From: a virus
Lineage: Duplodnaviria; Heunggongvirae; Uroviricota; Caudoviricetes
Virus record (IMG/VR): IMGVR_UViG_2875713109_000001
Strand: one strand, 5' to 3'
DNA: 64,000 bases
The position numbers and the translations under genes were made by a program. The notes under the pieces are model-generated. The model made no database searches and was not told the origin of the DNA. It worked only from the letters and a program-made list of their open reading frames with translations. This document shows, piece after piece, positions 39,659 to 39,693 of the stretch. Numbering within the stretch: the stretch's first letter is position 1; each line of letters begins with the position of its first letter.

Positions 39659-39693
39659 AATGCTGGTGGAGTGCGTCCCACCAGCATTTTTTT
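39659..39693 (+). terminator. intrinsic terminator
   Basis: aatgctggtgg-agtgcgtc-ccaccagcatt then TTTTT; stem contains Chi (GCTGGTGG) on both strands. Confidence 0.6.

Follow-up and report, generated by a model that had tools for sequence, protein, structure and literature searches.

The inverted repeat between pmgS and pap in the stretch of DNA analysed here (64,000 nt in total, hereafter referred to as the window), which is part of a P1-family phage genome packed with Chi sites, is probably a transcription terminator in the first place, and the Chi octamers on its two arms are probably an incidental part of the Chi population of that genome. In the sequence-only reading, Chi (GCTGGTGG) or its complement had been placed at more than 20 positions; 37 exact copies were found in the window (25 on the plus and 12 on the minus strand), compared with 1.89 ± 1.26 (maximum 5) in 100 dinucleotide-preserving shuffles. 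Seven of the 12 example coordinates given there were exact, whereas five were off by 1-10 nt and are amended here (43118 to 43119, 46368 to 46358, 50016 to 50026, 51989 to 51985, and 56720 to 56718); position 33667, which had been listed singly, belongs to a second convergent pair.

Three large BLAST queries with window segments gave matches of 96-99% nucleotide identity to P7, RCS47, SJ46, and P1, and the window is, as judged by sequence comparison, part of a Punavirus (P1-family) phage-plasmid of the P1/P7/RCS47 type: the collinear genome of high identity, pac with pacAB, loxP-cre, the C1 operators, and the C4 immunity RNA are all present. Positions 1-25000 are collinear with P1 44.1-69.4 kb, and positions 36000-40847 are matched by P1 80.1-85.0 kb; nevertheless, the window is that of a mosaic relative and not of P1 itself, the nearest elements being P7, RCS47, and SJ46. 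Phages and plasmids from Escherichia, Salmonella, and Klebsiella were the nearest matches of the window, in agreement with an enteric type of RecBCD. The P1 homology stops at approximately 40847, 1.2 kb to the right of the hairpin; the next ~6 kb (40850-47000) carry ead/Ea22-like, methyltransferase, and DUF551 genes, are matched by RCS47, SJ46, and further relatives, and form a mosaic, variable segment beside the conserved pmg block. Three tRNA genes (Asn-GTT, Thr-TGT, and a tRNA with CAT anticodon) are located at 24900-25053 and 26858-26933. The octamers TGCTCTAA (16 copies) and ATTAGAGC (14 copies), which are among the commonest of the window, make up the core of the operators for the C1 repressor, which are annotated all along P1. 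Two C4 antisense-RNA loci were observed, the first (4061-4146, a1/b1 target at 3940-3992) corresponding to the classical immI region and the second (50846-50933, with an isrK-like RNA ahead of it at 50723-50801) being located between pacB and c1; antirepressor-like ORFs follow downstream (4412..5446 and 51206..52321, respectively), and both contain Chi in near-identical sequence context (5110 and 51985). The two loci suggest a duplicated or second immunity module that is absent from P1 at that place.

Table 1. Positions of the hairpin, the Chi sites, and the reference features in the window (numbering from its first letter).
Feature	Position	Strand	Remarks
pmgS	38377..39639	+	420-aa protein with coiled-coil region; its transcript would be ended by the hairpin
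Stem-loop (predicted terminator)	39659..39688	+	11-bp perfect stem, 8-nt loop; best terminator-like match in the region
5' arm of hairpin	39659-39669	+	AATGCTGGTGG
Loop of hairpin	39670-39677	+	AGTGCGTC, 8 nt
3' arm of hairpin	39678-39688	+	CCACCAGCATT
T-run TTTTT	39689..39693	+	seven consecutive T counting the stem-base positions 39687-39688
Chi GCTGGTGG in 5' arm	39662..39669	+	oriented for RecBCD entering from the high-coordinate side
Chi in 3' arm	39678..39685	-	oriented for RecBCD entering from the low-coordinate side
pap ribosome-binding site	39702-39708		GAGGAGG; 9 nt beyond the T-run of the hairpin
pap	39713..40219	+	putative phosphatase of HAD/PNKP type; TTG start
Gene 25	32776..33993	-	'tail stability'; the pair region encodes QLVAQSTS
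Second convergent Chi pair	33667(+)/33681(-), 33667..33688		GCTGGTGG-ACTGCG-CCACCAGC; inside gene 25
Chi-containing hairpin (rejected as terminator)	56710-56728		AAGCCGCCGCTGGTGGCTT plus T-run; loop and 3' arm overlap Chi
pacA	47951..49144		contains pac; named from BLAST matches
pac packaging site	48144..48330	+	TGATCA/G hexamer clusters (4 plus 3-4) inside pacA; reference point for the Chi distribution
loxP	53907..53940	+	ATAACTTCGTATA-8 nt-TATACGAAGTTAT; upstream of cre
cre	54359..55390		downstream of loxP
Chi, plus strand	5110, 16092, 19798, 23441, 30902, 33540, 33667, 37050, 37549, 39662, 43034, 43119, 43992, 46358, 46526, 46783, 49182, 50026, 51514, 51985, 53815, 55292, 56718, 56929, 63469	+	
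Chi, minus strand	6427, 14745, 27960, 30430, 33681, 39678, 49463, 55113, 56171, 56398, 57705, 63687	-	
Chi-dense half	30430..63694	both	30 of 37 sites

The statement that Chi is present on both strands of a terminator-like hairpin behind a coiled-coil gene proved to be exact, the gene being pmgS, whose product is described in the P1 record as containing a coiled-coil domain; in P1, pmgR-pmgS possess their own C1-controlled promoter. The hairpin begins 20 nt past the pmgS stop codon, and its T-run, which is found on the transcribed plus strand and has no counterpart on the opposite strand, ends 9 nt ahead of the pap ribosome-binding site. Its calculated RNA folding energy is -18.2 kcal/mol (z = -5.4; shuffled sequences, -6.3). 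A stable stem-loop with a U-run, a location where a transcription unit ends, and pair-preserving substitutions are combined in a single element: the GC-rich perfect stem, the short loop, the U-run following a stop codon, and the compensatory or wobble changes among relatives are shared with intrinsic terminators, from which the hairpin differs in that its stem coincides with a recombination signal. Since any Chi within one arm of a perfect inverted repeat forces Chi on the other strand, the double-strand Chi is one sequence choice and not two. No Rfam family was matched at the hairpin; the P1 GenBank record has no terminators annotated anywhere, even at obvious ones, and the hairpin is likewise unannotated there. 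In the literature searched, "pmgS" was encountered among unrelated acronyms only, and the P1 virion paper is silent on pmgS and on termination. An antisense ORF over pap (39643..39930) was considered to be spurious and was left out of the gene set for the codon shuffle described below. A further terminator-like hairpin containing Chi (56710-56728) was rejected as a terminator; by comparison with P1, it is situated approximately 70 nt inside the mat coding sequence. A scan of viral contigs for terminators with a Chi stem yielded, among the matches listed, almost only the P1 pmgS locus, while the matches listed for bacterial contigs were mostly from unrelated bacteria (Sphingomonas, Bacillus, and others); the octamer is not Chi in those bacteria, and stems of this kind turn up by chance when a database is very large.

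The comparison with related elements separated the hairpin from its Chi content. In the P1-like copies (n = 113, gathered by flank anchoring and not by Chi), the Chi arms and the stem were intact in 111, and variation was concentrated in the loop (three common forms; the form of the window, with an extra T, in 16 copies); both Chi-breaking singletons, CCTACCAGC and GTTGGTGG, kept a G.U pair. More distant relatives were found through PmgS homologues of 52-71% amino-acid identity. The P1 clade has a G-C pair at Chi position 5 and Chi on both arms; at the same position, the Salmonella element (L352/L353) reads GCTGGTGG/CCATCAGC, with a G.U pair and Chi on one strand only, whereas the Cronobacter element (L214) and L354 read GCTGATGG/CCATCAGC (CCATCGGC in L354), with an A-U pair and no Chi; the still more distant L215, L216, L355, and L356 have unrelated sequence there. 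In the alignment of the ten distinct sequences, no core pair was broken, one pair appeared as G-C, G.U, or A-U, and three other wobble changes were present; the covariation was limited to one pair altered on both sides, the observed score being reached by 27 of 500 shuffles. The folding energies of the G-C, G.U, and A-U forms were about equal (-17.7 to -19.2 kcal/mol). Because pairing and stability are kept while Chi varies, the conserved object is the hairpin of the RNA, for which a terminator or attenuator located between pmgS and pap is the simplest reading, and the Chi pair, by the same comparison, is a clade-specific state of the stem.

Among the alternatives, the one that survives best is that palindromic pairs are selected as compact two-way Chi, the terminator stem and the spot in gene 25 having been recruited to act on RecBCD from either side; it is nonetheless considered unlikely. 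Two convergent pairs (the hairpin and gene 25) are present in the window and no divergent one, and random placement of 25 plus and 12 minus sites gives P ~0.002 for at least two convergent pairs, a figure that was, however, computed after the pairs had been noticed. Two of the 32 window hairpins with perfect stems of at least 8 bp are built of Chi, and the scarce non-coding DNA (~12% of the window) nevertheless holds 6 Chi sites. Moreover, both pairs occur throughout the P1 clade, including P1 itself in the case of gene 25, and the step to Chi in the terminator stem gave no gain in stability, i.e. a driver other than folding could exist. More than 800 plasmid records match gene 25 alone. The gene-25 pair is also kept in L103 at 73% nucleotide identity, with six neighbouring synonymous codon changes and none in the arms; yet the silence of the arms is weak evidence for selection of the pair because CTG and GTG are preferred Leu and Val codons. 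This divergent P1-like contig (IMG/VR, 13088 bases; ~72% nucleotide identity to the window; 52.8% GC) has a Chi every 0.5 kb (26 in 13 kb), approximately three times the density of P1. Against selection of pairs as such, the homologous terminator has no pair in Cronobacter and L354 and half a pair in Salmonella, both gene-25 arms are lost in the Salmonella arizonae plasmid L217 (81% amino-acid identity), L218 and L220 (57% identity) have kept a single arm, and no pairs at all occur in three other relatives rich in Chi (L214-L216, with 57 sites in 64 kb). The more general proposition that P1-type phages favour palindromic 'double Chi' hairpins as a 30-nt bidirectional recombination or protection signal, i.e. 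as a dual-use RNA/DNA element, is improbable to at least the same degree.

The protection of both orientations of a DNA end from RecBCD, which had been attributed to the hairpin in the sequence-only reading, holds insofar as a convergent pair would be readable from either side by the published orientation rule, according to which Chi acts only on RecBCD approaching from its 3' side. A particular design is not supported: the double-sided arrangement is automatic in an inverted repeat, the hairpin is conserved while the Chi pair is not, and the element is located 8.5 kb upstream of pac, where virion DNA ends would not be expected on the published packaging model.

That the inverted repeat is no terminator but a palindrome bound by a protein, or a signal for recombination or replication at the DNA level, is very improbable. 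Its perfect symmetry over 11 bp would be compatible with such a function; on the other hand, the T-run is confined to the transcribed strand, the repeat lies after a stop codon and ahead of the following ribosome-binding site, no Rfam family is matched there, loop sequence and length are free to vary, and the substitutions obey RNA pairing including G.U, which would be mismatches in a DNA palindrome or in a symmetric protein site.

The Chi excess as such looks selected at the nucleotide level, since it survives the synonymous-codon shuffle and Chi is retained in diverged relatives. GCTGGTGG is the most frequent octamer of the window, and the two next most frequent octamers both overlap Chi (the runner-up being TGCTGGTG). 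When synonymous codons were permuted gene by gene in the 93 genes derived from ORFs, a procedure by which the 6 non-coding Chi sites cannot be moved, a total of 11.9 ± 2.1 Chi was left versus the 37 observed; for coding Chi alone, ~6 were expected and 31 were observed. In four relatives of ~70% nucleotide identity, Chi was retained at 14 of 26 aligned positions (54%) compared with 8% for all octamers (binomial P 1.5e-9), with the qualification that the four loci are mutually related and not independent and that Chi in conserved protein segments was counted alike. That the excess arose passively from codon usage or oligonucleotide bias (CTG-GTG dicodons), Chi itself being under no selection, is extremely unlikely: CTG is in frame at 12 of 21 coding-strand Chi sites, the order-6 Markov expectation amounts to 27 (a high value because near-Chi heptamers are common too), and the Chi frequency of the E. 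coli chromosome is largely accounted for by codon usage according to the published comparison, but neither the codon shuffle nor the retention in relatives agrees with this origin, template-strand Chi is as common as the bias allows, non-coding DNA contains Chi as well, and the published P1 comparison arrived at the same conclusion against codon usage. Purines (A or G) at +4 to +7 have been described as the favourable 3' context of Chi (PMC5041463); no enrichment of purines was found in this 3' flank across the 37 Chi sites of the window (mean 2.14 of 4, ~2.0 expected), both hairpin Chi having 2 of 4.

Along the window, the numbers of Chi per 8 kb are 2, 1, 3, 3, 7, 6, 8, and 7, and 28 of the 37 sites are found in the 32-64 kb that surround pac. 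To the right of pac, in the packaging direction, both orientations are present (9 on the plus and 6 on the minus strand), as would be needed for a terminal-repeat recombination entered from both ends. To the left, from 30.9 to 47 kb, twelve plus-strand Chi follow in succession, the minus-strand sites being only 30430 and the two palindrome partners; the plus-strand sites would act on RecBCD that enters at the pac cut and moves away from the packaged DNA, although the run is confounded by the plus orientation of most genes in this region. A plus-strand Chi (53815) is located 92 bp to the left of loxP, and the signals for Cre-lox and RecBCD/Chi circularisation are thereby placed side by side. 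The res/mod genes (type III restriction-modification, 57467-62343), which have 35-40% GC versus ~48% elsewhere, contain a single Chi (57705); this AT-rich composition would suit a module that was acquired recently or is under other constraints.

The original count of Chi in P1 is reportedly that of the P1 genome paper by Lobocka et al. 2004. P1 has been described to contain 50 Chi in 94.8 kb (one per 1.9 kb versus one per 4.6 kb in E. coli), with Chi as its commonest octamer at a frequency that codon usage fails to explain, an enrichment common to P7 and D6, and a higher density towards the pac-proximal 'ends'; it encodes no RecBCD inhibitor and requires host RecA/RecBCD, and the role proposed for Chi is that it probably stimulates the terminal-repeat recombination by which injected P1 DNA is circularised (10.1101/2021.07.08.451572; PMC12315714). 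The enrichment in P1, P7, and D6 (Subramaniam & Smith 2022; PMC12315714) concerns the same phage family as the window and corresponds to it in octamer rank, occurrence on both strands, and pac-side density; one Chi per 1.7 kb in the window is not essentially different from one per 1.9 kb in P1. In consequence, the Chi richness of P1-type phages is already established, together with a proposed rationale, and is not new here. The Chi pair of the hairpin is not mentioned in this P1 Chi literature (10.1101/2021.07.08.451572; PMC12315714).

Two other systems are comparable in part. The lambdoid LLS class likewise has no Rec module or anti-RecBCD functions and a Chi density well above that of the host, and its Chi sites show a bias, in their orientation as well as their position, towards a DNA end (PMC12315714); it is, however, an unrelated lineage whose packaging proceeds from a fixed end at cos or pac, whereas P1 packages by a processive headful mechanism and has Chi on both strands. 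On the side of plasmids, the similarity lies in the fate of linear DNA and is restricted to experiments on small plasmids with Chi in a single orientation. Chi is said to protect rolling-circle plasmid DNA from RecBCD (Dabert, Ehrlich & Gruss 1992), and a correctly oriented Chi reportedly limited the degradation of linear double-stranded tails in that work, with high-molecular-weight concatemers as the result. By analogy, a role of Chi in P1 concatemers or on the unpackaged side of the pac cut might be imagined.

On the published proposal, Chi would switch RecBCD from the degradation of a linear end to the loading of RecA, and would thereby help injected DNA to recombine at its terminal repeats and probably also favour the rescue of other phage DNA ends; the highest density around pac would be in line with this role. 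The hairpin, by comparison, would be a Rho-independent terminator or attenuator that ends the C1-controlled pmgR-pmgS unit just upstream of pap, and its primary job would be a transcriptional one. Its stem is one base pair away from Chi or exactly Chi, the latter in the P1/P7 clade, and may have passed from A-U via G.U to G-C in a genome that favours new Chi sites. The hairpin would then simply add two sites to the Chi population of the genome and would be no purpose-built double-sided device.

The present analysis adds that the Chi excess survives the synonymous-codon control and that Chi is retained at ~70% identity, both of which fit selection on Chi; that the series A-U, G.U, and G-C may be read as the gain of a favoured octamer at no cost to RNA structure; and that a second palindromic pair is present in gene 25. 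The understanding of P1 biology is left unchanged by these observations, which would matter for it only if palindromic pairs were selected as such.
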